Positions 21,017 through 60,211 of a stretch of 64,000 nt of DNA are shown one piece after another (position 1 is the first letter of the stretch; each line of letters opens with the position of its first letter). The DNA lies in assembly GCA_000002445.1 (NCBI GenBank), contig CH464491.1:1248001-1312000 (forward strand), read 5' to 3'. A program made the translations under genes and the position numbers. The notes beneath the pieces were generated by a model. The model made no database searches, was not told where the DNA came from, and saw only the letters and a program-made list of their open reading frames with translations. Source of the DNA: Trypanosoma brucei. Lineage: Eukaryota.

Positions 21017-21036
21017 TGAAGAGCGAAACCGAAATG

Positions 21037-21066
21037 AAGAGAGGGAGAGAGAGAGAGAGAGAGAGA
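21037..21066 (+). repeat. (GA)n microsatellite in the 3' region of the second ALBA gene.
   Basis: The sequence gagagagagagagagagagagagagaga is directly visible. Confidence 0.9.
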
Positions 21067-29239: not shown

Positions 29240-29658
29240 CGTGGTTTTTTTGTGCTTATAAGCATCGGTCACAAATCCCTGTATTTACAGGTAAGGCGTA
29301 TGTGTGGATTCCACGGTTACGTAAGGGTCCCCGGCTAGCCGCCGATAGTCGAACTACATCATAGGAGACGTATCGTAATAGCCCTCTGTTTCCCTTTCGT
29401 CTTTGGTCTGTCAGGCTTTTGACCTTTGTGGCATTGATTCTGTAATTGAATTACTCTTGGTCGTTAATTTTGCAATTTTTCCACCCCCCTCCCTCCCTCT
29501 TGCACTACTGCCCCCCTGGCAAATACTTCGTTTCGTGCCAAGAAGGAAGCCAAAAAGCAACCCTGCAAGGAGGGTCCCACGCGCTTGAAGGGAGTTCGGG
29601 CGCCGGCCGTTGCCGTGAAGGCGCAAGAGGCGTTGGTGTCGTCACCCTAACGGGTTCA

Positions 29659-32424
29659 ATGAGTCTCTCCAATCAACTTCCGCGCTGCGCAACTCCGCTA
29701 TTTTACCAGTTAGCGGAGAATTCTGACCAATTTGAAAGTATTAACGACATGGTCATAATTTTGCAGCAACAGTTTGTTCGGCTTTTTAAGACCCCTGATA
29801 CACCGATGGGGGCGCAAAAGTCTACGGCTTCTTCTATAGCTTCCAAGGAAGAGGAGAAGCTCCTTGCAGTTCGCGCCGTCCACGCGTTGCACACAGTGGG
29901 TGCAGTGCGTCACGGTGATTTCTTTCGGAGTGAGTTGTACCACACCAACGCAGCCTTTTTTATCCAGGAGATGCTTGGGTGTCTTGTCGGGGATAGGCGG
30001 AATTGGTACCGTCAGCTACAAGTTGAGAGCCTCCGTGGGTGTTTGGCGGTAGTGCAGGCCGTAGGTTACGGTAACACCAGGCTGTGTTTACCGGGTATAG
30101 TTTCTGCATGTACAAAATACCTTGTCCGCGCACACCATGGTACGGATGCTGCAGACGTGCGCGTCGCTGCGGTTAACCTTATGCGCGTAGCACTCACGGT
30201 TTCGCTCGTACAACAACAGGACAATGAAGGATGGCTTAGGGAGACGGTTGATCACCTAGGGCGTGGCATGGGTCGGTTGCTTGCACCAGAAGAACTGGTT
30301 GGAACAGAGATCGGTCTTCCTGTTATGAAGGCGATGCTGCGTCTTGTCGTGGATCTTCTTGCGCTTCAGTCGCTGAATACACTTGTGTCGACTCAGCTGG
30401 TGAGAGAGCTCCTGGTGGGTTACTTTGTGCTGGAAAACCTTGTTCATCTTGAGGGTGAAAACACGCGTGACGAGATGAATTGTGTCCCTTCTTCTCTCTT
30501 GGAAAACGAGGAGGTTGTAAGCATGCTTCATGGGAGGCTGAAGGCTCTGCAGAAGGTAGAGTTGCTGCACTACTCCTCGTCACTGTTGCGCTGTGAGGGC
30601 ACACGCACTATCGTCTTTAGTGAAGAAACCCAGTTCCAATGCGTGATGGGCCAGTGCATCCGTGTTGCCGGGACCCAGATGGGCATGGAAGAGTTTTGTG
30701 GAGTACGAGGGAGTGCAAGTCGTATTTGCAGTATCGTAGATGGGTTTATCGAGTGTTTGGCGTACAACGTGCATCTAGTAGCGCTGGGGCCACTGAGACT
30801 AGCCACCTTTATAGATGAGTGTGAGGCGACGCTTTCCGACTGGGACCTGTATGCGCTCCATCCACCTACCATTTACGTTCTGACTCGACTCATCGTTTGG
30901 CAGTTCAAGACTCCTATGTGGGTTGTGGGAGCCTCTGCTGATGGTGCTGTGGATGGTACGGCGAAGAGGGATCTTCCAGTGGAGGATTTGATTCTCTCCG
31001 GGACATTTGAGCACCTGTGGAGTGTTGTCGCTAAACCACACTTGTGGAACATTACAGAAGATGAGGATCTATGCACTTACAAGCAACTGCAGCACCGTCG
31101 CATAGTCGCTGCGACCATCCTTAGATTTTTGGAGATCACTGCACAAACGTTGCGCGGTATCCCGAGCGGTCGAAGTGCAAAACGGAGGCGTGCGTTGCGG
31201 CGACTGAACGTACTTATGCTGTATCTTGTGCTTGAGAAAGCGGTTATTGCAGGTATCGTACACGATGTCGCGATGCGGGTTATTGATGCATTCAGTGAGG
31301 CATCCAGTCAGTCCGACACCCTTTTATTTTTCCTGGAAAGCAGTGACTTCATCGCCGATGAGGCTGCGCGGGCCGTTACGGAGGAGGAGCTCCGCATCTC
31401 AGCAGCCAATGTGCTTCACGGTGGTGTCAATTTCATTCGGTCAAGGCTTTTTGCCGTGTCTCGTAGGGATGTAATTGCTTCGAATACTAAAGAGTCACGA
31501 CGGTGGGTTCAGGTGATTAAAGGTTCCGACGTTGCCATTACTGCTTCGGAAAGCATCGTGTCGAAGGTAGCTGACTTTGTTACTTCCTCCATAAAGGTTG
31601 CAAGTGACGGGTGCCGCCGAGCCACACTTCAGGAGGATGCCGCCGGCGCACGAGCAGCCGTTATTCTACTCACAAGTTGCTTCGAGCTGAGCGCGTTACT
31701 AAACCGCTCGGTTCCGCAGTTGGGCTTTGATGAGGATCGAGACACCGTGACTACTGCAGCGCATCCTCGGGTTCAAATACTACAGCTTGCAGTGCTTGAA
31801 GCAGTGCAGATGTTACTAGCTTACTGTGCGCGAAACGACGGGGTATCGCCTTATGTCGTACGAGCCGTGGGATGCGGTCTTACTGTGTTTCTAACCACAC
31901 CTAAGGCCGCTGCATGGGAGCATGAGGATGATACCGGTGACGAAGGTCGACTGCCGTGTGTATTTCCGTGGGAAGTTGATGTCCCACCTGTTTTGTCGCG
32001 TCATCACTTGCGTACGGTGTACAGGGCGTACCTCGTGTTTTTGGCCATCCTCGCCGAGCCTGTTGCTACCATAACAGCACCAAACGCAGCAAAGCAGCGC
32101 TCCGCGGCGGAGCGTAGGGTCCTTGAGGGCGTTAGACCGAAACCTGGTGTCTTGGCGGCGTTGGATGGCCTTGAGACACTTTTCACATTGTCGACAGAGT
32201 TCCTCTCCCAACGTATGGTGGAAGAGGTTCTTCCTGCGGTTCTCACCTGGTACGAACGTGGAGCACTATCTAGGATTCCCACCGGGACAGAAGAAAAGCT
32301 GAAGCTAGCTGTGAAGAAGTTTGTTGAGTCTGTGTGTGATATTGAGCCCTCTATAACTCAAAATTTACATGAGGCATGTGCACAGCTGCTTCCCCACACG
32401 CTTTTCTCCACACTCCTGGAATAA
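29659..32424 (+). CDS. Hypothetical alpha-helical protein (921 aa), possibly a HEAT/ARM-like repeat protein.
   Basis: The track ORF begins in the polyY tract (…FFHPPPSLLHYCPPGK…). The first ATG after the tract is at 29659 (MSLSNQLPRCATPLFYQL...). The composition is complex and Leu/Ala/Val-rich helical. No catalytic motif is recognisable. Confidence 0.55.
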   Translation: MSLSNQLPRCATPLFYQLAENSDQFESINDMVIILQQQFVRLFKTPDTPMGAQKSTASSIASKEEEKLLAVRAVHALHTVGAVRHGDFFRSELYHTNAAFFIQEMLGCLVGDRRNWYRQLQVESLRGCLAVVQAVGYGNTRLCLPGIVSACTKYLVRAHHGTDAADVRVAAVNLMRVALTVSLVQQQDNEGWLRETVDHLGRGMGRLLAPEELVGTEIGLPVMKAMLRLVVDLLALQSLNTLVSTQLVRELLVGYFVLENLVHLEGENTRDEMNCVPSSLLENEEVVSMLHGRLKALQKVELLHYSSSLLRCEGTRTIVFSEETQFQCVMGQCIRVAGTQMGMEEFCGVRGSASRICSIVDGFIECLAYNVHLVALGPLRLATFIDECEATLSDWDLYALHPPTIYVLTRLIVWQFKTPMWVVGASADGAVDGTAKRDLPVEDLILSGTFEHLWSVVAKPHLWNITEDEDLCTYKQLQHRRIVAATILRFLEITAQTLRGIPSGRSAKRRRALRRLNVLMLYLVLEKAVIAGIVHDVAMRVIDAFSEASSQSDTLLFFLESSDFIADEAARAVTEEELRISAANVLHGGVNFIRSRLFAVSRRDVIASNTKESRRWVQVIKGSDVAITASESIVSKVADFVTSSIKVASDGCRRATLQEDAAGARAAVILLTSCFELSALLNRSVPQLGFDEDRDTVTTAAHPRVQILQLAVLEAVQMLLAYCARNDGVSPYVVRAVGCGLTVFLTTPKAAAWEHEDDTGDEGRLPCVFPWEVDVPPVLSRHHLRTVYRAYLVFLAILAEPVATITAPNAAKQRSAAERRVLEGVRPKPGVLAALDGLETLFTLSTEFLSQRMVEEVLPAVLTWYERGALSRIPTGTEEKLKLAVKKFVESVCDIEPSITQNLHEACAQLLPHTLFSTLLE

Positions 32425-32714
32425 GGAGATTGTGTTTCATTTCTGCACTGTCGGTCGTAGTCGACCGCTTTACACAGCATCTGTTATTTCCCATGTTGGA
32501 AACGGCAAGATTTATAGTGGCGGTATCGACGAAGTTGTGGCGCAAATTTTGCTCAACTGTATCTGTGTTTTCGCTTATTTCAATCAACATAAGGGTTGTT
32601 TGCTGGTTTATATCGTAATTCATCATTATTTCTTTCTCTTAATGGCTCGTGCCCCTTTTCTGCGGAAGTCATAACCTGGTAGGTTTGAAGAAGGCAGAGA
32701 CTCGTGTTGAGAAC

Positions 32715-35700
32715 ATGGCCTCCATCCCAAACGGCGCTGCACCCATACCACCGGATGTGACTTGCACCATCAATCCACTTCTTGACTTACTAGCAGCGTT
32801 TCCGGTGCCACAGTTGGCTGCTATACCACCAACACGATATTGTGAAAATGATGTAGCCCACTGCGAGCCTGACGCGGCGAGGGAAGAAGCGATCACAAAC
32901 ACCATTGAGGAGTCGGCCCGTACCTTAATAGCATCTAGCAGCTATGAGTTGCTGCGTGAAGCCACTGTGTGCATTGACAGTAGTGTTGCAACCGTCCCAA
33001 AAGGGGGAAGCATCCGCCCGACGCTTTCTCCACTTGCGCAGCGTATTCATGAGCGCCTGTTGCAACTGGAGAAAAATGTACGGGTGGGTGGTATACGTAA
33101 TGTGCCAGGTGGGGGGTCACCGCACAAGGGGCGTGTGCCATGGGAGCGCCAACCAGCCCGACAAATGACTCTGCGGCCTCGCCGCGAGCCGTCGCAGGAT
33201 GCTGCAAGGACGGCAGAGCAGGAGGACGGTTCGGAGAGCCCCAGGATCGAGACGAAACAATCACCGATGGCGGTGCAAAAAAACGAACAAACATATGGTG
33301 AATTCAAGACGGAGGCGTACCGTTCCATGGAGGTCGCAGATATTTTTAATGAAAAACTTATGGATTCTAAATCGCTTGACGCCCTCCTTGGCATGCTCTC
33401 GAGTGCAACGCAACCGTTCAGGGATGTTGAAGGAGAAACAATCACAGCGTTTCTTACTGCTCTTGTGCAGCCTTCTGTTTCTCCACCATCTACCAAAAAG
33501 AAGTGCCTGGATGATGTGGAGACGGATATATCTGTCGAACTAATGGAACGGGTGATTGCATGTTGTTCGTGTGTTTCACATCCTTCATTTAACCCGTCTC
33601 ACATCCCAGAGGATCTGATAAACCACCTTATCACAAAATTAGCTGTTCTTCTCCGACAAGTGGCGAGAAGAGCCTCCGGGCGCTCGAAAAAAAGCAAGGG
33701 CACCAGTACTGAACTTCAGTGCTTGCGTGCGTTGCTAGGTTGCTTTTCGTTGCTGGTGTCGGATGAGCGTCTGGACGTTTGTTCACCCGGAGAGTTGATC
33801 CGGTTGGAGGAACTCTGCTACCAGAGTTTATTTGTCGCAACTAGCGGTTTCGGTCATCAAGAGGTCGTAACTTACGCTGCGTATGTCATGAGTCACGCTC
33901 TGCAACTCTACCGGTGCTTGTGGAATCATCTGAAAGTTGAGCGCGACATAACAACTGAGCGGTTCTTTTTACAGTTGCCGCTAGGGGGAAACTTGCTTTT
34001 GCGGCTACAACAGCTTCCGTCAGGGGAGAAGGTTATGCCTCTCACAGCGGCAGTTGTGAACGCCGCGCAGTCATTGGATATCGGGACAGAGACAATCGGA
34101 CTGCGTGATGCCGAATGTTTGGTTCAGCAATGCCGGTCATGGGCCGCGCGGTTTGTCCAACACTTTGTGTTGGGCAAGCGGGAACTACAAGACCGCGACA
34201 CGGTTTGGACGTTGGTGCTTCAGTTTGTAGACGATCTCGCTAACATGTTGGGCTTACCCGAGTACCCCGCCGCAGACGCAATCTTGCAGTCGCTGCTCGC
34301 GTCACTTGCTCATTATGCCTCCGTTACCGCTGTCACCCTCGGGGAAAGAAACGCAGCCAACTTCTCCCTGCTACCGCTTTTTGTCGAGGTAATTTACAGA
34401 GTTTCCCGCGTTGCGCTTGGGGGATCCCTCCAGAAAGCACTGTGTGTGAAAGTTCCTCCGGCATCCCGTTTGTTGTCCTCTGCTCAGATGAGGCAGTGGC
34501 GTTACCTTACGTACTACGACACCACGGCGACGAAAAAAAAAGGTAGCAACATCAGCGCTGACTACGAAAACAAAAATGAAGATGATAGTTTGCAAGTGGG
34601 CTTGGATGACTACCGGGCCATATTGTACACAGCCCTTTCACAGTCGTCTAATTTGCCTCCTTCCGACTTTGGGGACGTATCACTCCACTTGCGCGCCGCG
34701 CATGTGCTCACTTGGGCGGTGCATGACAAGTGCTTTCACGAGTTAACTCTCGACAAACTTGTGCGCAGCCGGCATATTGTTGAAGGTGGTGTTTCAGTTG
34801 ACTGGGGTATGCTTCGGGCATGCTCTTTACGGTTATCGGCCGAACGGGAAAGGTCATTGCTTAACAGAGCGGCAAAAGAGCGACTCCTGTCGCTGCTGTT
34901 GTCCGTATTTCAGGTTTGGGAGGAAGAACCTCAGGGAAGCTTGGGCAGCCTGGAAGTGGCGCGCAAGAAGGCGCTCACTTATATTGCAGAACTCACCGAG
35001 TTACACCCCCCTTTGCTGGATAAAATTTGGCCGATTGTTCAACGGTGCGCCCGATGCGATAATGCACGCGTAAGGGAGGCAACCGTTGCACTGCTACTAA
35101 CACTTATTTCCGGTATATGTCGTGATACTAAGCGGGAAAGTGGTTTGACGGAGTCCGCTGTGGCTGATATGCTCACGGATGTCGTGAGTATGTTGTTGCA
35201 TTTTCTGAGGGACCACAATGCAGCTGTGGTCGCACGATCCATTGCAGCACTGGACACACTTCTCACGGAGGAGCCATATACTAAATTATTTGAACAGATG
35301 AGTAAGGTAGAACATTTGGTGACTTTTACGCAATCAAAGCTCCTCACATTAATCACTCCGTCCGCCGCTGTACTGGAGGTGCCAGATTGCCAGCACCAGG
35401 CAGCACTGCACCGTCTATTCATACGGCGTTGGACAGCGCAGATGCCGGGTGATTTTGAGCAGTATCACGTTCACATACGTGTGGCGAAAGAACTACTTCG
35501 TCTCACGGGTAGTACCATTAAGTATCCCTATGATGCATCAGAATCGCTACACCTCGTCACATTATTGCGTGGAATGTGCAGTGAGTTGACGGCTGTCAAA
35601 CCTAAGCGTCGTGGTCCAAAGAAAGCTGAAGATGCGAGAAGGCAGGCGTTGTGTGGAGTTATGGTTGGAGCCGCGAAGGCATTATGGTCGGAGTGGCAAC

Positions 35701-38084
35701 GACTTTCACCAGGGTCAGGAGCTGCGGCAGCTCTAGCTACGATTCACATTCTTTCAATGGCATGCAACGATTGGGTAGATCCGCTACTCGATGCTCTAGC
35801 GCAGGTGCTTTTACAGCAACAACAACTGTTAGTGAAGACAGATATGGCAAATGGAGACTCTGAGGTAACAGGCATCACACTTTTGCATGTTTGCCGGATA
35901 ATGCATACCGTGCTTATGGGGTCCCGGAGACCCCCGCTTCCGCTTGATCCACTTGCACAGGTGTTGACATCGTTGATCTCGCGCTACGTAGGACCACATC
36001 AACAGAAAATTCTTCTTTCGGCTACGGGGGCCTTAGTGTCAACCATAACCTGTGGGCACGATAGGCTTTCCAAGCAAGTGAACACCAAGTATTTAACTTT
36101 GTGCTACTCATTGATGAATACCTACTATGTGCACGTAGCTTCGTTTGCCCCCACACTTCGTACCAACCAATGCAACGTCGGCTACACATTACGTTTTCTT
36201 TTCCTCCTCTCGGAGTTCCTACGACTCTACCCTGGATGGAAGCACCGCCACCCGGAACTGGCCGCCCTCACAACCACGACATCATGTGCTGGCTCCGCTG
36301 GAGCGACAACTGTTCCAAACCAGCTTGCATGCGGCGATGGCATATGCGCGAATATTTACTCGGCGGTGGAATTGGTGTTGCGCGAGTGCCCCGAAAGGGA
36401 ACGGGGAAGAACCACTGTAATCGCCCTGCGAGTAATGGGTTCGTTGTGCATGCTTCAACCTACTACTTATCTACGTCATTGCGAGCCATACATTCGTCGT
36501 GCAATTCACCCTGCGAGTGATGTGCAGCAACAACTTCAGGGTCTCACATTCATACGGGATTTTCTGCGCGACGAAGATTCCAGGGTGCACGAAGCAGCCA
36601 TGGCGGCCGGCGCAACTCTGCCAATTCAATGGCAGGATAACGGCAACTGCAGCACGCAACCCGCGAGCCCCAATAATGGGTGTCGCCTACTGAAGCTTCA
36701 AGCCTCTGCAGAAACGCAGGTGGAGGAACAGAACAGTGGTATGGCAACTTGGTTACTTCAGCAGTTCCATGAGCATGTGACCCTTCTCTGTGGGAGTTAC
36801 ATGTTACCTGTGAGGGAACTGGCCATGGAAATACTTCACCTGTGTGCAGCGGGTGGGCTGCTGCCGCCGCCGAGGTACACTAAAGCGTTAATTGTGCTGG
36901 GTGCCGATCCACAGAGCGGTGACGTTAGGAGGACCGCTGTTGCTTACGTCCTGGAACAATGTGAGCGCCACGGGGACCTTATGGTAGCAAGTTCAACTGC
37001 CGGGATTGTGAAGGCATTCGACCTCCATGCCGTCTGCGGGGTTGATGTTGTGAAGAGTGCCATTGGGGTGTACGACACACAGCACCATAACGGACAGGGG
37101 GAAGGTGAGTACTGTGTTCATGCGTACCTCTTTAAATCGCTGCACAAAAAATATCGCGATGCCATCGTCTCATCGCTGATGTGTTATTTTCATGAGGAAG
37201 CCCGCGTAGGCCAATGGATGCGGGAGCATAAGCTTACTTGTAGCGGCGGCGCGGCCAGTGGATCCAAGGGCTTGATGGAACTAACACCGAGTCCACTTCC
37301 ATTTCTTATCCACTTGACAGTTGTGCTGGCCCACATTCCTTTCCAGCTCGAAAGTGATGTCGTTCATCTGTTGGACAGTTGCCGCACGGTTGTTGATTTA
37401 AGTGGACCGAGTTGCATGGAGTTCGTGCAGCAGCAGCTCGCACTGCTTCAAGCGAGTACGGGAACGGGAGCCCGCGGCTCACGAGGTGTCGGTGACGTCG
37501 GCGTTACCAAAGTTACGGATAGTGCACTTGACGTGTGGAGGTGCTATGGCGTTTCGTGCGTTCTACACCTCAATACTTTCCTGCATTCAGCGTACGACCT
37601 GCGCGGATCGAAGCGGTATCGACAGTCCGGGGTTGGCCGCCCGGTGGGGAGGGCCGCACGCAGTGACTCGCGAAGGGTGGCGTCCACGGCCTTCCTCAAT
37701 AAGATGAATGAGCTTCTGCAGAGCATGAACGTACTGTGGGGTGGGAAATCGGATGCAGAGGGAAAGCTCAATAACTGCAAAATTCAGTCAATGAAAAGCC
37801 TGCTTACCTCCCTCGCAGGCGCAGCTGGGTTGGAGGATACGGACGCCGTGCTTGAGTGCCCGAGTGGTCCACGAATGAAAACGAAAGCATCCACGCGCCA
37901 TCATAAGAAGGCAAAGAAGCGGGGCCGACCCTGTTGTCGGCTGTCAAATGTTGTGAATGACTCTTCGAGCAGCAGCTCCGAGAGAGCCACATCCGCTGAG
38001 TCGTTTCAGCGTGGTATTGACCACGCAAGACACGGTGAATGCATAAGTGAGTGGGCCGATGATTTTTTTCACACGGAGCAGTGA
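32715..38084 (+). CDS. Very large hypothetical protein (1789 aa), predicted helical-repeat architecture, function unknown.
   Basis: The track ORF starts at a GTG at 32649; the first ATG is at 32715 (MASIPNGAAP...). The reading frame is uninterrupted for 5.4 kb with complex composition. No low-complexity artefacts are present. I see no recognisable enzyme motif. Confidence 0.6.
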   Translation: MASIPNGAAPIPPDVTCTINPLLDLLAAFPVPQLAAIPPTRYCENDVAHCEPDAAREEAITNTIEESARTLIASSSYELLREATVCIDSSVATVPKGGSIRPTLSPLAQRIHERLLQLEKNVRVGGIRNVPGGGSPHKGRVPWERQPARQMTLRPRREPSQDAARTAEQEDGSESPRIETKQSPMAVQKNEQTYGEFKTEAYRSMEVADIFNEKLMDSKSLDALLGMLSSATQPFRDVEGETITAFLTALVQPSVSPPSTKKKCLDDVETDISVELMERVIACCSCVSHPSFNPSHIPEDLINHLITKLAVLLRQVARRASGRSKKSKGTSTELQCLRALLGCFSLLVSDERLDVCSPGELIRLEELCYQSLFVATSGFGHQEVVTYAAYVMSHALQLYRCLWNHLKVERDITTERFFLQLPLGGNLLLRLQQLPSGEKVMPLTAAVVNAAQSLDIGTETIGLRDAECLVQQCRSWAARFVQHFVLGKRELQDRDTVWTLVLQFVDDLANMLGLPEYPAADAILQSLLASLAHYASVTAVTLGERNAANFSLLPLFVEVIYRVSRVALGGSLQKALCVKVPPASRLLSSAQMRQWRYLTYYDTTATKKKGSNISADYENKNEDDSLQVGLDDYRAILYTALSQSSNLPPSDFGDVSLHLRAAHVLTWAVHDKCFHELTLDKLVRSRHIVEGGVSVDWGMLRACSLRLSAERERSLLNRAAKERLLSLLLSVFQVWEEEPQGSLGSLEVARKKALTYIAELTELHPPLLDKIWPIVQRCARCDNARVREATVALLLTLISGICRDTKRESGLTESAVADMLTDVVSMLLHFLRDHNAAVVARSIAALDTLLTEEPYTKLFEQMSKVEHLVTFTQSKLLTLITPSAAVLEVPDCQHQAALHRLFIRRWTAQMPGDFEQYHVHIRVAKELLRLTGSTIKYPYDASESLHLVTLLRGMCSELTAVKPKRRGPKKAEDARRQALCGVMVGAAKALWSEWQRLSPGSGAAAALATIHILSMACNDWVDPLLDALAQVLLQQQQLLVKTDMANGDSEVTGITLLHVCRIMHTVLMGSRRPPLPLDPLAQVLTSLISRYVGPHQQKILLSATGALVSTITCGHDRLSKQVNTKYLTLCYSLMNTYYVHVASFAPTLRTNQCNVGYTLRFLFLLSEFLRLYPGWKHRHPELAALTTTTSCAGSAGATTVPNQLACGDGICANIYSAVELVLRECPERERGRTTVIALRVMGSLCMLQPTTYLRHCEPYIRRAIHPASDVQQQLQGLTFIRDFLRDEDSRVHEAAMAAGATLPIQWQDNGNCSTQPASPNNGCRLLKLQASAETQVEEQNSGMATWLLQQFHEHVTLLCGSYMLPVRELAMEILHLCAAGGLLPPPRYTKALIVLGADPQSGDVRRTAVAYVLEQCERHGDLMVASSTAGIVKAFDLHAVCGVDVVKSAIGVYDTQHHNGQGEGEYCVHAYLFKSLHKKYRDAIVSSLMCYFHEEARVGQWMREHKLTCSGGAASGSKGLMELTPSPLPFLIHLTVVLAHIPFQLESDVVHLLDSCRTVVDLSGPSCMEFVQQQLALLQASTGTGARGSRGVGDVGVTKVTDSALDVWRCYGVSCVLHLNTFLHSAYDLRGSKRYRQSGVGRPVGRAARSDSRRVASTAFLNKMNELLQSMNVLWGGKSDAEGKLNNCKIQSMKSLLTSLAGAAGLEDTDAVLECPSGPRMKTKASTRHHKKAKKRGRPCCRLSNVVNDSSSSSSERATSAESFQRGIDHARHGECISEWADDFFHTEQ

Positions 38085-38857: not shown

Positions 38858-41800
38858 ATGTTCCGCGAGGCACTTGAAAGCGTTTTGGAGTTCATTGGTT
38901 ATCATAGTGAACACCGAGGGTGCAAGGGTAGCGAGCTACTTTCGTTTATCTCCACGGATGTTTTACCGCATTATGGGCTTGGGCAGCACTCTACAATGCA
39001 ACAAACGGTAATGAACCTGCTCCTGAGTGAGACCGATAGTTTCACCGTTAAAAGCGGGGGAAAGACTCTCTCTTCCGGTGAGTTGACGAGCACTGTACTG
39101 CAGTATGATTCCTGTGCCTTCTGCCCGACACGGGCACTGCAAGAAAAAACTGTTGGTTACAGTCTTCGGACCGCGACAATTCGGGCTGCAGTGAATTATG
39201 CATGTGAAAACATGCTGTTCGGTTTTCTTCGCAACCAGCCTGGCAGGAGCGTTATAGCTGGCAGGGAGGATGATGCTGCGTCAAGGGGGATGAACGCTAG
39301 CGCGTCCGGACTGAGCGTAGGTGTGCGTACCCTCCTACGCGATAAGTGGTTGAAGTGCGTTTTTGTCTTTCACAGGGTCAGTAAAGTGTTAGAATTGTGT
39401 GTCTTGCCGTATTTCGCTATGCCCGTGCCTCCTCGGCAACAGCACTTACAGCCCCTCCAGTCGTATTTGAAACGGTGCCGCGCTCACATGAGAGATTCAC
39501 GAGTTGTGATAGACATAAATGTTGTGCGCCACATTGTGCTGTCCTCTCCTGAGCGCCGACTGGTCTACCAGGATGCTCTTCATGCGGTATTCGAAGCTTA
39601 CGGTGAAACCGTGCCAGGCGGAAACGGGCGTGCATTTGGTAGATGCATCGGTCGTTTGCTTAGAGCAGCGGACTTACGTGTTGTGAGGGCCTCCATAACT
39701 ACCGGTTACCGGACTCACAGGGTCTCGGTAGTTGTGGATGCACGGGCCAGATTGAACGGAGACGGTGGACACACGGAGTGTACAGCCCGCGAGGGGGGAG
39801 AAGATGGCGAGGAAGGCAACACTGATGTTAGTTCGGACTCCGGTGGAAGCGAAGATTCAGGCTCAGCAGATGATAACCCCGGGAACGACTTTATTGAATG
39901 GAAATCAGAGGTTGAATCTGCGCAAGCGCCACTTGCTCGTATTCCCAATGGGGGCACTGGTGGCTTCCATGTGGATCCCGCGTTTCCTTTACCACTGCAG
40001 GTGGTAAAGCAAGCTGAGAGGAATCCGATTGCCCTGGAGCTAGTGCTGCCGCGTGTTGTTTTTTACGATTCGAAGAACATAACTAAGGAGCTGTACAGAT
40101 ACACGACCACCTATGAAGAGCGTTACGGGACCATCGAGAGTACAAATGCTCTGTGTGCATACGGCAAGTCTTTTACTCGTGTATTGCAGCCCAAGGGGTG
40201 GTCGGGTAAGCACAAGAGTGGTTACAACGAACAGCTTGATGGGTCATTACCAAAGGGAGTAACAGTGTGGGCTGTTAGCGCGGTGCTGGATGCTCTAAAT
40301 GCCTCGCCCCTACGGGCGATGACACTTGTGGACCTCGTGAGCGTTGTTGACCGCAGGACATTAGGTCGCGTTTTACCAGTCCTTCAACGCGAGAATCGTG
40401 TGACAACAACGGGTGTAACACTCCCCCAGGGTAGACGTCTTGGGGTTTTAGTCGTTGCCGGCGTGAAGTTAACAGATGCCGATCGTGAGGAGTTGATAAA
40501 GCGCCACAATAGCCGGTGGGGTGCCCATTCACAAGGTGGGAAGCCCCTCGTGCGACTCAATCATATACCCTCCCCAGGAGGAGGAGGAGAAAGTGGACAA
40601 GCGAATTCAGTGATCAGGCTTCCCGAGGGTTCTTCCCGAACCGCGCGCATTGTTACGAAGATCACGATGATTCGCAATGGCTACAGTCGAGTCGGTCTGT
40701 TTCGGCACTCGCGACTGCACTTGGAACTGTGTCGTGTGTGGTGCCTCCACAACCTAAATCCAACGAAGTCGCTAACGCTAGGGCAGTTGCTTCAAGAAAT
40801 GAGTCTGAGTTCCTTCTGTATAGTTGTGGGTGTGGGTGATGTGGATCTCACTTCGTACATAAGCGAACGTAGATGCAGTTGGGGCACTTCCATGCGGCAC
40901 CTTCCACCTACCCTGCAGGAACACTGTAGTCGTTCAGGTCTGCAGCCACTCATACACTCACTCTCTGTACTGCAAGCGAGGGGGCTTGTGATGTGTGACA
41001 GAGTACTGAGAGCCACTGAAGACGTAGATCCCGATGAATTATTCATTACGCTCGCCAAAAGCACTGGTCGTGTGTGTGAGATTGGTATTGACACGGGCTT
41101 TGATGATCAGCCGGATGAGTCGTGGGAATACGTATTTTTCCCCACCGGTGGTCCCGACAAGCCTCAGGAAACCTGCCGTGCAGTAATGCAATACTGGGGT
41201 GATTGTTGGAAAAAAGTTTCGAATACAAAGAGTGCCCATGACCGATTGGGTGCTTTTATCTGCGAAGCTGTCACAGTGGAGCCAAACATAACTGATGTGC
41301 AGATCTTTGCACTTTCATGGTTACTCCGCGTTGATTGCAGCATTATGGCCGAGCACCTTCTGCAGAGGTTGGGGTACATACGGACCGAAAGGTGCGCACG
41401 TCAACGGCGCGGCAGGGGACGTGGGCACATGTTATCCAAGTGCGCAACTGCTGGTTATGGACATGCTAGTTTTACCCGTCTCGGTGCGCGTCCCCGAGGT
41501 GACCTGACCGCCAAGAGTGTGGCTGACGTGATTGTGGATGGGTTACAATCTGACGAGTTAGAGGGCAACCTTGCTCGACTGGAAGCAAAATTGCTAGGTA
41601 AGAGGAGGGAAACACTTGAAGGTTACTATAGTCCTTATTGCAACCGAGTCCATGGTAGCATGCTTACCATCGTACAAGGTATGTTGAGGGTTGTACAGCG
41701 AGAAGGGGGTACACATGCAAGGAGGGAAGCATCCGCACAACCAAAGAACACAGTGGTTTCTTTTGCTTCACCTCACTTAGCTGCCGCAGAGGGGCTGAGT

Positions 41801-43069
41801 TGCGATGATAAGCGCACGTCGGTAAGGAATGCGGAGCCGGACGATCTGCGCTCCGTGTCGAGGCGCCTTTCTTCCAGTATCCCGCCTAGTTCAAGGACAG
41901 CCAATCGACCCCGAAAGGAACCACCTGAAGTGCTGCAGGATATCGTACGCATGATACTTTTGAGTGATGAGGCGCATTACGATGCGGTGGCGGCAAAGGC
42001 CCTGCTCGCGCAATTTAAAGTAGTAGAGCTGGATAATTGTATCGATTGGCTTCTGACCTTTCCGTCTTTCCGAAACCGCTCGAGTGCTTGCGGGAGGTTG
42101 CCGCGCGTTGAGCTTGCACCCCGCTGCAAACTTCTCCACCTGAAGCACGCTGAGCGGGTTACGCACCCCCAATGCGTAAGTGCAAGTTACGCGCACACCG
42201 CTACCGTTTCCATGCTCTTCTTGCCGCAGTCTAACTGCCGCCGTTGGTGCATACCACCTATCCTTCAGCCGGACAGCCTGCTCCTGCAGACTGCGCCGCG
42301 TCTCATCGAGCAACCCTTTCCTGACATACGGTTTTTGTTGAGTAATACACAAGAGGGTACTGAATTAAGTGCACTGCGAGTGCCGCGTTTTGCACCTCCG
42401 CCGCGCACCGACGAAAAGAAAATGTTTGTGACGACACGGACGGGGGTGGAGACTACTTGCGTCGCCAGCAATATAGCGACTAGTGCTACAACCGTAGGTT
42501 GCATCTCCACCTCTGCTGCAAAGGTGCCTACTGAACCTTATCCGGCGCGCTTCCTGCTACGGCCGTGGAAACGATTGCGTTATTTAGACCTTCTCGACAT
42601 TCCAGTTGATCCACCGCCCACCTCAGACCAGTGCAAGAGGGCACGCAGCGCGACAGTCACTTCAACTGAAGAAGGGAGAGATGACACGCCTACGCTGCCG
42701 CAGTATCCCAGTGTCTTTCATCACGTGGACGGTTCCTTTCATGTGTTCTTTTGGAGGTCGTTTCTATTTGCTGTGTACGCGCTAATACATAACTCACCGG
42801 GTATCACCGAAGAACGGGTTATGCAGGAACTTGTGCCAAGCGGCCTCGTGAGCCATGCAGCATGTAAAATGGCCATTAATTTTCTTAAAGCATCGTTGGT
42901 GATTACAGTGCGGAGCATCGTTCAAGCATGTGGTGAAGTGGACAGCCCGTTCCGGAGTGAGGCGTCAACCATGGCGGGTGGAGACGCGGCAAAAGCTACC
43001 ATGAAACACGTTGACTGTTACTTCTGCACGATATCACAGGATGGGCCGTGGAATGTGGTAAACTTGTAG
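38858..43069 (+). CDS. Large hypothetical protein (1403 aa). It is a candidate winged-helix-rich protein of the TFIIIC220/tau138 type; this is a low-confidence inference.
   Basis: It starts with ATG directly after a polyY tract and AG. The N-terminal MFREALESVLEFIG... and the C-terminal ...YALIHNSPGITEERVMQELVPSGLVSHAACKMAINFLKASLVI resemble, as far as I recall, the terminal winged-helix modules of the TFIIIC B-block-binding subunit (human GTF3C1 begins MDALESLLDEVALEG and ends ...[38 protein letters not shown]). The rest of the protein is not assignable. Confidence 0.55.
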   Translation: MFREALESVLEFIGYHSEHRGCKGSELLSFISTDVLPHYGLGQHSTMQQTVMNLLLSETDSFTVKSGGKTLSSGELTSTVLQYDSCAFCPTRALQEKTVGYSLRTATIRAAVNYACENMLFGFLRNQPGRSVIAGREDDAASRGMNASASGLSVGVRTLLRDKWLKCVFVFHRVSKVLELCVLPYFAMPVPPRQQHLQPLQSYLKRCRAHMRDSRVVIDINVVRHIVLSSPERRLVYQDALHAVFEAYGETVPGGNGRAFGRCIGRLLRAADLRVVRASITTGYRTHRVSVVVDARARLNGDGGHTECTAREGGEDGEEGNTDVSSDSGGSEDSGSADDNPGNDFIEWKSEVESAQAPLARIPNGGTGGFHVDPAFPLPLQVVKQAERNPIALELVLPRVVFYDSKNITKELYRYTTTYEERYGTIESTNALCAYGKSFTRVLQPKGWSGKHKSGYNEQLDGSLPKGVTVWAVSAVLDALNASPLRAMTLVDLVSVVDRRTLGRVLPVLQRENRVTTTGVTLPQGRRLGVLVVAGVKLTDADREELIKRHNSRWGAHSQGGKPLVRLNHIPSPGGGGESGQANSVIRLPEGSSRTARIVTKITMIRNGYSRVGLFRHSRLHLELCRVWCLHNLNPTKSLTLGQLLQEMSLSSFCIVVGVGDVDLTSYISERRCSWGTSMRHLPPTLQEHCSRSGLQPLIHSLSVLQARGLVMCDRVLRATEDVDPDELFITLAKSTGRVCEIGIDTGFDDQPDESWEYVFFPTGGPDKPQETCRAVMQYWGDCWKKVSNTKSAHDRLGAFICEAVTVEPNITDVQIFALSWLLRVDCSIMAEHLLQRLGYIRTERCARQRRGRGRGHMLSKCATAGYGHASFTRLGARPRGDLTAKSVADVIVDGLQSDELEGNLARLEAKLLGKRRETLEGYYSPYCNRVHGSMLTIVQGMLRVVQREGGTHARREASAQPKNTVVSFASPHLAAAEGLSCDDKRTSVRNAEPDDLRSVSRRLSSSIPPSSRTANRPRKEPPEVLQDIVRMILLSDEAHYDAVAAKALLAQFKVVELDNCIDWLLTFPSFRNRSSACGRLPRVELAPRCKLLHLKHAERVTHPQCVSASYAHTATVSMLFLPQSNCRRWCIPPILQPDSLLLQTAPRLIEQPFPDIRFLLSNTQEGTELSALRVPRFAPPPRTDEKKMFVTTRTGVETTCVASNIATSATTVGCISTSAAKVPTEPYPARFLLRPWKRLRYLDLLDIPVDPPPTSDQCKRARSATVTSTEEGRDDTPTLPQYPSVFHHVDGSFHVFFWRSFLFAVYALIHNSPGITEERVMQELVPSGLVSHAACKMAINFLKASLVITVRSIVQACGEVDSPFRSEASTMAGGDAAKATMKHVDCYFCTISQDGPWNVVNL

Positions 43070-43464
43070 CTCTGATAAGCTGTACTCTCTGCGTATATGT
43101 AACGAACTGTTCACCTGTTTAAGGCGGAGAGTTGTTGTATTTGAACATAGTGTGCCTTCCATCCGTAAATTTGCTGTTGAAGCACCTTTGAAGTCGTGCA
43201 AGTCCGCGCGTTTGCCCTCGTTCAAGCGTGCTGAAACCAGCTGCAACGCCACGCGACTCCGTTGCTGGTCCAGATGTCAACTTCCTCATGTGTTATGTTG
43301 TAGCAATTCCCGGTGTGTTTAGCTGTGTGTATATATATACAAACTTCTCGTTTTTTTGTTTTTACCCTATTTATGTGTGAATGTATGTGTGGGTGCGCAA
43401 CTGTCCGCGGAGCTCGGCAAGCACCGCGAATAAAGTAGGAAAAACGAAAGGCAGTTTTGACGCA

Positions 43465-44184
43465 ATGCAGGTGCGTCGCGCCACGATGGAAGATATGTAC
43501 CAAATGCAGCACTGCAACCTACGCTGCCTGCCCGAGAACTATAACCTGCGGTATTACCTTTACCACATTCTTTCGTGGCCACAGCTGCTGTACGTTCAGG
43601 AGGATAACAACGGCAATGTTGTAGGTTATGTTCTCGCCAAGATGGAAGAAGAGGAGCACGCAGAGAAGGTGTTTGGACACATCACAAGTATTGCCGTCCT
43701 ACGAACGCACCGGCGCCTAGGTATTGCGTCGCGGGTGATGAATGCCGCGCTGCATGAAATGGAGCACGAATACGACGCCAACTTCTGCTCTCTCCACGTT
43801 CGTAAGACAAATGATGCCGCTCTTCATCTGTACCAGAATACCCTCAACTTTCGCTGTGCTAATGTAGAAAGTAAGTACTACGTTGATGAGGAAGATGCCT
43901 ATCATATGAAGCGTTTCTTTAAGGGAACAAACCCAGGCTTCTATGTGACAGAAAGTAGGCAACTCGTACGCCAACCAAACACAGGGGCTGGTGCGGCAGC
44001 CGGGTCCGCCGCAGAAGCTAGTGGTCAACGGCCAGACAAAAAGAACTCCGTAGACAAGCAGAAGGAGCAGTTGGAACTGGCGGCAGAACTCCTTGAAGAG
44101 GATCTTAAGAGCTCCGGAAAGGGGCGGCGACAGCCGCATCAGCAACACCAAAAGGGCGGTAAGCACGGAAAAGGTAAAAAGTAA
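43465..44184 (+). CDS. NAA10: N-alpha-acetyltransferase catalytic subunit Naa10/ARD1 (NatA complex).
   Basis: The ATG at 43465 gives [63 protein letters not shown]...[21 protein letters not shown]...[20 protein letters not shown]. This is nearly collinear with human NAA10 ([47 protein letters not shown]...). It includes the GNAT acetyl-CoA motif R-x-x-G-x-A. The upstream ATG at 43381 lies before the AG acceptor and inside the polyY region, so I did not use it. Confidence 0.85.
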
Positions 44185-44635: not shown

Positions 44636-45997
44636 ATGTACCAGCCACTCCTTGAGGCACCTGCGGGGTCGCCTAGCGCTGTTGTGGGCGACAGGCTTAT
44701 TGGTGAAGCTGCGGGGTCCCTCTTTGGTGGTAGCGACCGTGCGGCCTTCGAGGCTCAAGGCGGTGCTTACTACCCACCGTGGCGTCCGGCGAACGCAAAT
44801 GTGATATCTGGCGGCCGGTACCGAGCAGCGGGGTCCGGCATAATGGCGACGTGGCAGCGATGGCCCTTGTATAGACTGCAAACGGTGCTACGGCCTCTTA
44901 CATCATTGTTTCCTCTCCTGCGGGTGGTGTTTCCCTTCGCTGTGCCGGGTCAAGATAGGTGCCCGCAGCTGTGCGCAGCGGCGTTCGCTGAGCGTGTTAC
45001 TGCTATCTCGTTTCATCCGGTACGCATGATATTGGCTGCTGCTGTGAATGAGGGTAACGACTGCTCGCGCGTCGTTGTGTATGATGTGGCAGAGGGGCGG
45101 GAGGAGTGTGTTCTCACTCACGCTTTTCAGCGCCAAACTTGCTGCCTTGCGTGGAAGCCCTTGTCGCGTGATGTGCTTGCGGTCGGGTGTAACGGCGGTG
45201 TGCTGTTGTGGAGCCTCACCTTTAACATGTCACCAGCTGGGCAGGCTGTGCTTGGCAATGGCAATCTCACTCATAGATCTGTTGTCAATGGTACAGAGAG
45301 TAGTGCACCGTATTGTCTTTTCTATCGCTGTGCGAAGAATGTAGTTGTTACATGCATACGGTTCTCGTGCCGTGATGGGCGTTACCTTGCCTGCGGTAGT
45401 GCGAAGCATGCCGCACTACACTTCCATGACATTCGGCTGCAACCGTCAAAGTCGCTGCTGTTGCGGAACGTATCAGTTGAAGGCGCAACGCAGGACGTGT
45501 TGTTTGCCGACGACGATTCTTTCGCAATTCGCTTGGTTTGTGGCACGAGTGTGTTGGTGCTGCTGCAATTTCCGAGTTGTGCTGCCAATGTTGTGCCCAC
45601 AGCAGCACCAGTGTTGGGTGTGACGAAGGCTCGAGGGCTTGGGCCCAATTATTTCTTTCTCCACTGTCATCACGTGGAGGGTGTGTTTGTGGCGCACATT
45701 AATCCATTCGTCGGTGTGCATGTTATTGGTCTTATTTCAACAGGCATTCACCGTGGTGTCGGTGGTGCTGTACGGTGTGTTGCAAGCAGTGACAGGCGAC
45801 TGTTCGTTGCGCTAGAGACTGGCCATCTTCTAGTCATGCATTACGGACGGCGAGGTGTTTTCACCCTAATACCAGTAGGCACGGCAGAAATAGGCACTGA
45901 GTGCATGGCAGTGTTTGATGGCTGCACGTATGGGTCGTTGCTTGCTGTTGTGGAAGCGGACCAGTCTGTGTCATTTGTTCCTGCGTATCATGCATAA
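44636..45997 (+). CDS. Hypothetical protein (453 aa), possibly a beta-propeller/WD-like fold.
   Basis: It starts with ATG after a polyY tract. It has a Gly/Ala-rich N-terminus. Then it has repeated beta-strand-like hydrophobic blocks that end in short VVVYDV, LAVGC and LLW motifs, reminiscent of WD blades. No firm domain call is possible. Confidence 0.45.
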   Translation: MYQPLLEAPAGSPSAVVGDRLIGEAAGSLFGGSDRAAFEAQGGAYYPPWRPANANVISGGRYRAAGSGIMATWQRWPLYRLQTVLRPLTSLFPLLRVVFPFAVPGQDRCPQLCAAAFAERVTAISFHPVRMILAAAVNEGNDCSRVVVYDVAEGREECVLTHAFQRQTCCLAWKPLSRDVLAVGCNGGVLLWSLTFNMSPAGQAVLGNGNLTHRSVVNGTESSAPYCLFYRCAKNVVVTCIRFSCRDGRYLACGSAKHAALHFHDIRLQPSKSLLLRNVSVEGATQDVLFADDDSFAIRLVCGTSVLVLLQFPSCAANVVPTAAPVLGVTKARGLGPNYFFLHCHHVEGVFVAHINPFVGVHVIGLISTGIHRGVGGAVRCVASSDRRLFVALETGHLLVMHYGRRGVFTLIPVGTAEIGTECMAVFDGCTYGSLLAVVEADQSVSFVPAYHA

Positions 45998-56373: not shown

Positions 56374-57940
56374 GTGGCTCGTAAAATATGCATTGGATTG
56401 CTTTTCGTGTTTTTTTTGTTTGTTTTCTTGTTTTTGTTTTCTTTTGGGGAGTATTCGATTGGATTTTTTTTTGGGAGGTGGAGGCTACTGTAGAGAGGAA
56501 GAGTCGTGTAAACAAGAGGAGGAAGCAGGAAGAAATAATAATAATAATAATAGAAGAAGGGAAGGAGAGTGGCTGCAACGGAAGGTAAAGTAAAAAAAAA
56601 AAAGAAGAGAGGGAGGAGAAGAGAGGAGAACAAACAACTTATCCCGTCATTTCTTCTTCTTCTTTTTTGATCTTGCGTTATTGTATGTATATGTATTCCT
56701 GACTTCTGTTGCTTCCTTCATCAATGCAGAAGTTGTCAGTTTCGCAAAGAATGAAGGAAGTAAAAAAAGAAAAGAAAAAAGTTTATTATTATTATTAAAG
56801 AAAAAAAAAGGAGAGATGAATAAAATAGAGGAAGGGAGTATGAATCCCATTTACTGGAGGAGAAAACAAAACGAAGGGGATTAAATGAGATGATGAAATT
56901 GAAAAGTGAGAGTGAGAGTATGAGTGAATGAACTGTTGCGAAGACGTGAGACAACTGGAAGGCGAGAAAGTTGTGTGGGATAATGTTAGAAAAAATAAGG
57001 AAACATATATAGAAAAAAGAAAAGAGAAGAGAAGAGGCAAGGGGTCATGGAGTAATAAAACGAGGGAAAATAGTAATGATAATAATAATAATAATAATAA
57101 AAACAAGATGGGAACATGAAAAACGGTGAAGGCAAATATGAGACTTGTAACTGTACCGAATATGACACCTATTGTTGTTATTATTACTATTGTTGTTATT
57201 TATTTATTTTTTTAAAAAAAAAGGGGGGAAAAAGAAAAAAAAATGAGGGAATAACATTTTGGATTTGCACCAGATCCAGTTTATATGGAAGAACCCCTGC
57301 TGATGGTGGCAAGGCGTATTGTGGACTTGACGCGGCAATTTTTTTTTTTTTACGCGCAACTGCTTCGGTAGAGTAGGACAAAAAGAAAAATTACGCAAAC
57401 AAAATATTTTGGTGATTTCTCTTTTTCCCCTTTTTGGTGTTTATATTTATGTTAAAAGTGTACAGTTATGTGTCTGTAAATTGTGGTATACCGTCACTTC
57501 AGCATTTCCTTCTTGTATAACACACCAACAAAGAAAAAAAAGAAAGGGAAAAAGATTTTTTTTCTAATTTATTCTATTTATATTTTGTTGTTGTTGGTGT
57601 TATTGCGTTAGTAACGGCAGCAATGTGTGGTATTTGAAGGTTTATGTTTCATTTCTGTATGATGATAACATGTGTAACTTTCATTCATTTAATGTTAGGT
57701 CTGCCATGTCGTCTCATTATTATTATTATTATTATCATCATCATCATGTTTTAAAGTTCTCTCGTCCCTCTCGTACTCAACTTTTCGTTTTTGTTTCTTT
57801 GTTATTTTGCCGAGAATAAAGAAAAAATATGTATGTATATATTTATTTATTTAAAAGCAACACCGACCGAACCTATCCTTCCCACAGCTACGCATAAGCA
57901 AAATTCGCAAACAGCACGAACTTTATTTATTTATTTATTT

Positions 57941-57970
57941 GTGTGTGTTTGTGTGTGTGTGTGTGTGTGT
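57941..57970 (+). repeat. (GT)n microsatellite in the long region downstream of PKAR.
   Basis: The sequence gtgtgtgtttgtgtgtgtgtgtgtgtgtgt is directly visible. Confidence 0.9.
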
Positions 57971-58372
57971 TTTTTCTCCTCCCTCTTCTTTGTTTATGCC
58001 ATCTGATGTTGTAGTTGTTTTCTTTTCTTTTTTCCTTTTTTTTTTTTGTCAGCATGTGAAGGGAAAAGTTTCATCTCGTGTGTTTCCTTTCATTTGTTTT
58101 TTTTTCTCTCTTGCTTTTGTTCTTCGCTTCCTTCGCCCCATAATTCCGTTTGTTGACTCCTTTCGGCTCCTTCGCTTTTTGTTTTGTTTTATGTTTTATG
58201 TCTTTATATTTATTTGTTTAATGTTTCAATTGCCCTTGTGTTTGTATTTGTGTTTGTGTTTGTGCTCGGGAGGTTCTGTTTTTTTTTTTCCTTTTTGTTG
58301 TTTTTTTTTTTTCCCTCCCCCTTCCCCGCCGTTTGATGTTGTTTTTTCTTCACTCTTGATTTTATTCCTTTC

Positions 58373-58408
58373 CTCTCTCTCTCTCTCTCTCTCTCTCTGT
58401 CTGTCTCT
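58373..58408 (+). repeat. (CT)n microsatellite.
   Basis: The sequence ctctctctctctctctctctctctgtctgtctc is directly visible. Confidence 0.9.
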
Positions 58409-58501
58409 TCACTTGAGCAATTTTTCTTACCTTACCGTTGGATGGACACTTCCTTTTTTTTCTTAAAAAATTACTGTTTGATTTCATTTAATTCTGCACG
58501 C

Positions 58502-58525
58502 GAGGAGGAGGAGGAGGAGGAGGAG
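58502..58525 (+). repeat. (GAG)8 trinucleotide repeat.
   Basis: The sequence gaggaggaggaggaggaggaggag is directly visible. Confidence 0.9.
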
Positions 58526-59689: not shown

Positions 59690-59744
59690 TGAATATTTAT
59701 TTATATTTATATTTATATTTATATTCATATTTATATTTATATTG
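59690..59744 (+). repeat. (ATATTT)n hexanucleotide minisatellite, about 9 units.
   Basis: The sequence tatttatttatatttatatttatatttatattcatatttatatttatatt is directly visible. Confidence 0.85.
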
Positions 59745-60187
59745 TGTATTTGTATTAGTGGTGCCCGGGGGTATCTCGCGGTTGGCGCTTTAAAATCTTG
59801 CATTTTGTTGTCGTGTTGTCTTCTTTTTTTTTTTTCTTTTTTCCTCCTCCCCCCCCTTGCGGTCGCATTATCTGTTCAAATTTTTTTTCATGTGTCTTTT
59901 TGTCGTGTTTGTTTGTTTGTTTGTTTTTTTCTTTACTTCGCTTTATCTTACCTTATCTTATCTTATCTTTTTCTCGTCATGTTTTTTTTTTACTTTGATT
60001 CTCTTCCGTTAATTTTTTTATACTTTTTATTTTCTTCATACTAATATTTGCTGCATGGTACTTCCAATGTCGTTACGCGTTTGATCCACTTTTTTTTTCT
60101 CCCCCCCCCCATCATTCCCCCCTTCTTTTTTTTTTTCATTCTTCTCATTTTCTACACGCACACACGCCTCTTCACTTTTTCTGGTGC

Positions 60188-60211
60188 ATATATATATATA
60201 TATATATATAT
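60188..60211 (+). repeat. (AT)12 microsatellite.
   Basis: The sequence atatatatatatatatatatatat is directly visible. Confidence 0.9.

Follow-up and report, generated by a model that had tools for sequence, protein, structure and literature searches.

Does a 1403-codon open reading frame (ORF) of Trypanosoma brucei, labelled 'hypothetical protein' in the databases, encode the largest subunit of transcription factor IIIC (TFIIIC), and how do its domains then correspond to those of the yeast and human subunits? The ORF occupies positions 38858..43069 of the 64,000-nucleotide (nt) stretch of contig CH464491.1 analyzed here, hereafter the window, on the forward strand, as do all features described below unless stated otherwise. 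With an ATG start and a TAG stop, it covers 4212 nt and encodes a product of 1403 amino acids (aa) with a calculated mass of 154,952 Da. Evidence presented here indicates that this product is very probably the kinetoplastid ortholog of the subunit known as tau138/Tfc3 in yeast and TFIIIC220/GTF3C1 in human, which holds RNA polymerase III at tRNA genes and of which it is a highly diverged counterpart. A previous sequence-only reading of this DNA had correctly delimited the ORF, which is real and has exactly those boundaries, and had suggested a TFIIIC220/tau138-type subunit from the appearance of its two ends. That proposal is now supported by the identity of the gene, by structure searches and by the Pfam family DUF6581, with B-box binding remaining an analogy. 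Its premise, that TFIIIC is hard to identify in trypanosomatids, is outdated: the factor was long believed missing from these organisms, but purification work changed this view, and TbTau138 has been published since January 2024.

The gene at this locus is Tb927.11.4520 (TbTau138), here present complete (1403 codons plus stop). Mondragon-Rosas et al. 2024 (PMC10781861) called this 155.0 kDa hypothetical protein the Tau138 ortholog, and their supplement, quoting TriTrypDB, lists it at Tb927_11_v5.1:1311106-1315317(+), with 1403 aa and 154.9 kDa. All 16 distinct mass-spectrometry peptides taken from that supplement for Tb927.11.4520 (16/16) match the ORF exactly, within the range aa 144-1320, so that length, strand, mass and peptides concur in identifying the window gene with that record. 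The Tau138 assignment was thus already known, and the identity of the gene is not new. Homologs retrieved by sequence search are all 'hypothetical' Trypanosoma proteins, such as T. congolense TCIL3000_11_4610. The term orphan, previously applied to this protein, therefore fits its database annotation, but not its biology, since orthologs exist throughout Kinetoplastea and the protein received its name in 2024.

Biochemical data place the protein within the RNA polymerase III (Pol III) machinery. Upon tandem-affinity purification of TbTau95-PTP, Tb927.11.4520 was among the most abundant partners (101 and 116 peptides), with Tau131 and Tau55 recovered alongside (PMC10781861), and it is also pulled down by the tagged Pol III subunit TbC82 (28 and 30 peptides; PMC11894013). 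Chromatin immunoprecipitation (ChIP) located Tau95 on tRNA and U2 genes (PMC10781861). Published homology evidence consists of an HHpred match of T. brucei Tau138 to the central extended winged helix (eWH) of yeast Tau138, with a probability of 78.9% and an expectation value (E) of 13, and of a match with 30% probability and E=240 for the Leishmania major ortholog LmTau138 (LmjF.13.0270) (PMC10781861). As this support is weak, an independent test of homology was worthwhile.

An AlphaFold2 (AF2) model of aa 1-850, obtained from a 12-sequence kinetoplastid alignment with a mean predicted local distance difference test score (pLDDT) of 71, contains five to six winged-helix (WH)-like modules. Comparison of this model by Foldseek with 350,542 Protein Data Bank (PDB) chains returned exactly four matches at E<=1e-3, all of them TFIIIC220/tau138: 8CLI_A, human TFIIIC220 in DNA-bound tauB (E 1.4e-7, 673 columns); 9GC3_A, yeast tau138 of tRNA gene-bound tauB (E 6.9e-6, 642 columns); 8FFZ_B, yeast tau138 (E 1.7e-5, 668 columns); and 8CLL_A, human TFIIIC220 (E 4.3e-4, 354 columns). 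The next match stands at 4.6e-2, and the scores of other multi-WH proteins (Nse/MAGE, C82, TFIIE, MarR) are far weaker. As judged from the model, the N-terminal half carries, at the fold level, the collinear array of WH1-WH4 and eWH that forms the B-box-binding part of tauB in TFIIIC220/tau138.

A protein with so many WH modules might alternatively belong to another family of WH arrays, of C82/RPC3-like, cullin/APC2-like or MAGE/Nse-like type, its presence in the Tau95 pull-down then reflecting co-purification with Pol III or chromatin. Such families do appear further down the Foldseek results, with a chain of the Nse complex (7DG2_C) at that E of 4.6e-2 and MAGE and C82 (7Z1L_O) at E 0.13-0.2, and the co-purification of Tb927.11.4520 with C82 (PMC11894013) could be read in the same sense. 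Nonetheless, these matches, with probabilities of 0.09-0.77, lie orders of magnitude below those to TFIIIC220/tau138, TbC82 is a separate known gene (Tb927.2.2990; PMC11894013), and no Pfam match to the C82, cullin or MAGE/Nse families was found. Membership in one of these families is accordingly a very improbable explanation.

Within the array, the WH1-like module (aa 1-125, 38858..39232; pLDDT 85-90) comprises helices at 2-14, 24-38 and 45-57 and a beta-hairpin at 62-71, and lies within the 673-column match to 8CLI_A. It begins with the string MFREALESVLEFIG (aa 1-14, nt 38858-38899), whose residues M1 and F2 show no variation among kinetoplastid orthologs. This helix was one of the two elements that the sequence-only reading had compared with human GTF3C1, and both human strings quoted there proved exact: in chain A of PDB 8CLI they occupy residues 1-15 and 2008-2045. 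Here, a likeness was taken as above chance by comparing its hhalign score with a null of 60 column shuffles. Alignment of Tb 1-130 with vertebrate 1-170 recovers the register formerly proposed (E 0.28), but its score of 13.1, against a null of 11.9 ± 2.3, is equalled in 18/60 shuffles, and the likeness of the N-terminal helix was consequently rejected as sequence evidence. What stands is the fold, a predicted WH module heading a TFIIIC220-like array. Alignment of the N-half profile with verified yeast Tfc3 1-740 by hhalign was likewise discarded, as it brought up no more than a chance match of 16 residues.

As names for the Tau138 modules, WH1-WH4 and eWH are all provisional. The WH2-like module (aa 140-184, 39275..39409; pLDDT 80-89) is formed by helices 140-149 and 152-161 and a hairpin at 165-184, and the WH3-like one (aa 199-294, 39452..39739; pLDDT about 80-88) by helices 199-211, 220-228, 237-247 and 258-270 and a hairpin at 273-294. 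An acidic disordered loop (aa 298-368, 39749..39961; pLDDT <50), in which aspartate and glutamate make up 24%, separates the latter from the WH4-like module (aa 378-445, 39989..40192; helices 378-388 and 405-423, hairpin 426-445). This loop draws spurious profile matches to QCR6, APC15, CDC45, Nop14 and DNA_pol_phi and is best masked when the family is used in homology searches. A fifth WH module with a trailing helix follows (aa 470-558, 40265..40531; helices 470-482 and 499-511, hairpin 515-533, helix 540-558). In hhalign, Tb 499-555 line up with the eWH region of vertebrates (E 0.06), and the score restricted to Tb 470-560 and this eWH exceeds chance by a modest margin (17.3 vs 10.3 ± 2.0, reached in 0/60 shuffles). 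In terms of sequence, aa 470-558 is the best candidate for an eWH equivalent.

An extended WH-like central domain comes next (aa 593-737, 40634..41068; AF2 pLDDT 80-91). It is among the most conserved kinetoplastid blocks, the conservation peak of the N-half being at aa 601-625, and in the shuffle test its sequence matched neither the vertebrate eWH nor the vertebrate block 860-1010 better than chance. Equivalence of aa 590-740 to that conserved vertebrate 'linker' block (residues 860-1010 of sequence P0068) had been considered from a first E of 0.19, but was abandoned because 27/60 shuffles scored equally. A four-helix segment (aa 769-849, 41162..41404; AF2 helices 769-790, 795-807, 813-823 and 827-849, pLDDT 70-83) closes the modelled N-half.

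At the opposite end, the sequence-only reading had pointed to a block around 42770-42910, YALIHNSPGITEERVMQELVPSGLVSHAACKMAINFLKASLVI (precisely aa 1307-1349, nt 42776-42904), resembling GTF3C1, and this likeness is clearly above chance. A kinetoplastid C-terminal profile aligned by hhalign with that of the vertebrate GTF3C1 C-half gave a single match (E 7.6e-5, 81 columns) pairing Tb 1287-1371 with human 1987-2067. When only the terminal domains are compared the score is 49.3, against a null of 11.4 ± 2.6 and with 0/60 shuffles reaching it. Yeast Tfc3 behaves similarly, its residues 1070-1118 aligning with Tb 1278-1326 (22.5 vs 11.1 ± 2.2, 0/60 shuffles). The block lies in a C-terminal WH domain (aa 1279-1390, 42692..43027) that carries a hydrophobic-x3-PGI-x-E turn of the kind found in the human 2008-2045 region and around yeast residues 1095-1105. 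In the profile alignment, I1310-x3-PGI-x-E of the trypanosome protein coincides with human I2010-x3-PGI-x-E, while Tb Y1307 faces human L2007. Of the shared spacing formerly described as Y-x-I-x3-PGI-x-E, the I-x3-PGI-x-E part is thus common to both proteins, but the trypanosome has Y-x2-I, its tyrosine being one residue off. The terminal blocks of Tau138 are among its most conserved across kinetoplastids, and a PGI-motif terminal WH is common to kinetoplastids, yeast and human. Yeast tau138 is said to lack WH8 in the cryo-electron microscopy study of human TFIIIC (PMC11811891). Since the three termini share this domain, the WH missing from yeast may be a different one.

A second line of sequence evidence comes from Pfam DUF6581 (PF20222), the sole consistent Pfam signal of the family, which matches in 8/8 Trypanosoma orthologs. 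The match reaches 35.8 bits in T. theileri and 35.6 in T. melophagium (gathering score 27; E about 6e-9), and falls always at the conserved motif EVLQDIVRMILLSDEAHYDAVAAKALL, at model positions ~150-225 of 401. In T. brucei the motif opens a conserved helical core (aa 1013-1065, 41894..42052; DUF6581 positions 171-223; AF2 pLDDT 83-88). To what DUF6581 corresponds is indicated by yeast Tfc3, whose sequence was checked against PDB 8FFZ_B (100% identical across aa 741-1160): Tfc3 741-1160 matches DUF6581 with E 3.1e-82 over model positions 11-400 (yeast aa ~742-1114), that is, across nearly the whole model, which identifies the family, at the sequence level, as the C-terminal, tauA-associated region of tau138/Tfc3. 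Verified human GTF3C1 matches only the last ~50 DUF6581 positions, weakly (E 7e-4), through residues ~1985-2031, which include part of the human segment compared above, and PF20222 is absent from the precomputed annotations of vertebrate GTF3C1 orthologs. In the human protein, these last ~50 positions thus correspond to the terminal WH, in the region of WH8. An hhalign comparison of the DUF6581 core (Tb 1010-1100) with the single yeast sequence produced an off-register local match and was set aside in favor of the Pfam HMM mapping.

The model of the C-terminal half (aa 870-1403) is weaker than that of the N-half (mean pLDDT 58); the parts predicted with confidence are the core helices of DUF6581 (Tb 1019-1069) and a winged helix of canonical form (Tb ~1279-1390). 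In Foldseek, its two best matches are again TFIIIC220/tau138: rank 1 is 8FFZ_B, yeast tau138 (E 8.1e-3, probability 0.91, 525 columns), and rank 2 is 8CLK_A, the TFIIIC220 C-half in human tauA (E 0.098, 630 columns). Chain 8CLI_A of tauB, top match of the N-half, appears here only at rank 44. In the models, therefore, each half prefers the corresponding half of TFIIIC220/tau138. These structure searches, which the sequence-only reading had suggested as a means of refuting its proposal, speak for it in both halves; the profile checks suggested with them gave the DUF6581 match but no match to Pfam B-block_TFIIIC. Both halves of Tau138 are homologous to the matching halves of TFIIIC220/tau138, at the level of fold and partly at that of sequence.

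Resemblance of this kind could also arise if Tau138 were a kinetoplastid-specific multi-WH scaffold, associated with Tau95 and Pol III but not descended from the TFIIIC220 ancestor and only analogous to it, their WH arrays having converged. Considering that (i) the family matches DUF6581, the Tfc3 C-terminal region, above the curated threshold, (ii) alignments of the C-terminal WH to the human and to the yeast terminus clear the shuffle nulls by a wide margin, (iii) the Foldseek matches run collinearly over long stretches (525-673 columns), each half finding the correct half, and (iv) C82, cullins, Nse and TFIIE score at least 100-fold worse in Foldseek, convergence is improbable, and orthology to tau138/TFIIIC220 is the preferred explanation.

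Several observations nonetheless weigh against the assignment. Profile comparison of the N-half with the vertebrate or yeast N-halves gives no significant match; phmmer of the Tau138 protein against all PDB sequences finds no TFIIIC chain; three profiles of the family (Trypanosoma only, broad N-half and broad C-half), run by hmmsearch against PDB sequences, yield only acidic low-complexity matches or noise; and searches of profile hidden Markov models (HMMs) against sequences never reach GTF3C1 or Tfc3. PF04182 (B-block_TFIIIC) and the families of the GTF3C1 N-terminal WH and eWH, PF23704 and PF24101, which vertebrate GTF3C1 orthologs do bear, have no match at E<=10 in T. brucei Tau138 and match in 0/22 relatives (8 Trypanosoma orthologs and 14 more distant kinetoplastids). 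The DUF6581 match of T. brucei itself, at 18.5 bits, is under the gathering score; the C-half Foldseek E-values (8e-3 and 0.1) are marginal; and Foldseek template-modelling scores are low (0.12-0.31), because inter-domain geometry is not reproduced. Moreover, the published ChIP on tRNA genes concerns Tau95 and not Tb927.11.4520 (PMC10781861). As regards the missing B-block, WH and eWH signatures, they represent a failure of sequence models in a very divergent lineage and not an absence of the fold.

An exhaustive HMMER search with the aa 366-1403 profile of the family against 1.84 billion representatives recovered just 24 relatives, all kinetoplastid-type and including Phytomonas, Leptomonas and Bodo saltans, and a second, word-indexed search with the family alignment added no further ones. 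The family thus spans Kinetoplastea, with no bridge to canonical Tfc3. Two very long environmental (Logan) relatives, P0026 (2952 aa) and P0024 (1747 aa), match only parts of the same profile (E 3e-8 and 1e-12), and neither gives a Pfam match. As possible divergent Tau138-like proteins from euglenozoans, they might help to link the family to canonical Tfc3.

Between the two halves, aa 850-1018 (41405..41911) form a poorly conserved, mostly low-confidence linker of about 170 aa (low or mixed pLDDT), analogous in position to the flexible segment that joins tauB and tauA in TFIIIC220. Its length falls between those of yeast (~100 aa) and human (~550 aa) (PMC11811891). Taken together, these features suggest a mechanism in which the N-terminal ~560-740 residues, a WH chain of WH1-WH4 and the extended WH, would wrap around the intragenic B box of tRNA-type genes. 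By fold homology to the DNA-bound tauB structures, and by analogy with the known subunits, we infer that Tau138 may bind the B box directly. The segment aa ~850-1018 would act as a flexible tether, and the C-terminal third, with its DUF6581-type region and terminal PGI-motif WH, would be built into tauA (Tau131/Tau95/Tau55), a docking proposed also by analogy and one that would explain the near-stoichiometric recovery of Tau138 with Tau95. Tau138 could in this manner connect recognition of the B box with that of the A box and with the recruitment of TFIIIB and Pol III.

One aspect of this mechanism must depart from the human model, and it too counts against a simple equation of the two. In human tauB, WH1, WH2 and WH4 are scaffolded by the WD40 subunits tau60 and tau91 (PMC11811891), while the 2024 study found no trypanosomatid orthologs of tau60/tau91 and no WD40 protein among the abundant co-purifying proteins (PMC10781861). 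The trypanosomatid tauB part therefore cannot work in exactly the human way. Kinetoplastid tauB might be essentially a single polypeptide, Tau138 reading the B box with no WD40 scaffold of tau60/tau91 and aa 593-737 being a lineage-specific addition, either in place of this scaffold or for recruiting a partner peculiar to kinetoplastids (e.g. Tb927.11.10550 or Tb927.8.770). We consider this version doubtful; since tau60/tau91 had been proposed to be absent in 2024, its novelty would be limited to the role of the central domain.

Turning to its surroundings, Tau138 is flanked by unrelated genes. Upstream lies a Nipped-B/SCC2-type cohesin loader (32649-38084; Pfam Nipped-B_C E 1.7e-23, aa 1366-1580), whose mechanically assigned GTG start probably lies too far upstream; 'MASIPNG' occurs in frame 23 codons further in. 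Downstream is a GNAT N-acetyltransferase, probably NatA-catalytic-subunit-like (43381-44184; Acetyltransf_1 E 2.8e-17). This cohesin-loader neighbour bears on a further alternative, namely that the terminal likenesses are coincidental and that the protein acts mainly outside Pol III transcription, in chromosome architecture only or in the cytoplasm. TrypTag reports a nuclear localization with some cytoplasmic signal, and cohesin and condensin subunits occur at low coverage in Tau95 pull-downs (PMC10781861), both of which could fit. But Tb927.11.4520 is one of the top partners of Tau95, the very subunit located on tRNA and U2 genes (PMC10781861), and the structural and profile evidence leads to TFIIIC220/tau138, so that a main role of this kind is hardly credible. 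Gene order adds little to it. Trypanosome polycistrons are not functional operons, their genes are not grouped by function, and unrelated neighbours are usual; a functional linkage of Tau138 to the cohesin loader or to the N-acetyltransferase was dismissed for that reason. Farther away are a weakly TTI1-like ORF (29446-32424; sub-threshold TTI1 TPR matches) and an Aladin-like WD40 protein (44636-45997; partial Aladin-propeller match with E 9e-14, under the gathering score). A 153-aa ORF on the reverse strand (41891-42352, TTG start), wholly within the Tau138 coding region, shows no sign of being a gene and is most likely a by-product of mechanical ORF listing.

Regarding the window as a whole, no tRNA genes or Rfam matches were found in it. 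ORFs of at least 200 aa are all on the reverse strand up to 13992 and all on the forward strand from 16294/21262 onward, and the sign of the GC skew flips at ~18 kb; positions 14000-21300 are a divergent strand-switch region and look like a divergent start region for Pol II transcription that separates two polycistrons. Positions 56400-61800 are AT-rich (GC 0.31-0.37 vs about 0.50 elsewhere) and contain no ORF of at least 200 aa; a short tandem array of TATTTA (59698-59756) lies inside this stretch.

To the published assignment the analysis adds in-silico homology evidence considerably stronger than the published HHpred matches, which sets the Tau138 assignment on firmer ground, the recognition of DUF6581 as the Tfc3 C-terminal region, and a provisional domain map of Tau138. 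Annotation would benefit, since 'hypothetical' remains the label of the gene and its orthologs, and the domain boundaries supplied can serve DNA-binding and complex-assembly experiments in a parasite with a divergent Pol III machinery. The Tau138 result strengthens a known assignment; it opens no new question.

Comparison with the known systems shows how much of the canonical architecture is kept. Human TFIIIC220 comprises WH1 (1-163), WH2 (175-247), WH3 (253-337), WH4 (367-437) and eWH (612-714), followed by a ~550-aa linker and, inside tauA, a homeobox-like domain and WH5-WH8 (PMC11811891). Both human TFIIIC220/GTF3C1 (PDB 8CLI, 8CLJ, 8CLK, 8CLL) and Tau138 display an N-terminal collinear WH array, for which 8CLI_A is the best Foldseek match, and they share the overall domain order, a flexible linker, a C-half of the tauA-embedded type (8CLK_A at rank 2) and a terminal WH with I-x3-PGI-x-E (hhalign E 7.6e-5). 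An acidic patch between WH3 and WH4 is also present in the vertebrate GTF3C1 consensus, as in Tau138 aa 298-368. On the contrary, Tau138 is smaller (1403 aa vs 2109 aa) with a much shorter linker, has no detectable PF04182/PF23704/PF24101 signature and shows N-terminal sequence likeness at chance level, and the human partners TFIIIC110 and TFIIIC90 (tau91 and tau60) are apparently absent in trypanosomatids (PMC10781861). Yeast tau138/Tfc3 (PDB 8FFZ_B, 9GC3_A, 9GCK_A, 5AIM), with 1160 aa, is similar to Tau138 in size; both bear DUF6581 in their C-terminal region and their C-terminal WHs align, while identity in structural alignments amounts to about 10-12% and there is no significant N-terminal sequence match. 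Finally, the published TbTau138/LmTau138 (PMC10781861) is the same gene, assigned there from co-purification and a weak match to the central eWH; beyond that work, homology now extends to both halves of the protein, including the terminal WH first spotted in the sequence-only reading.

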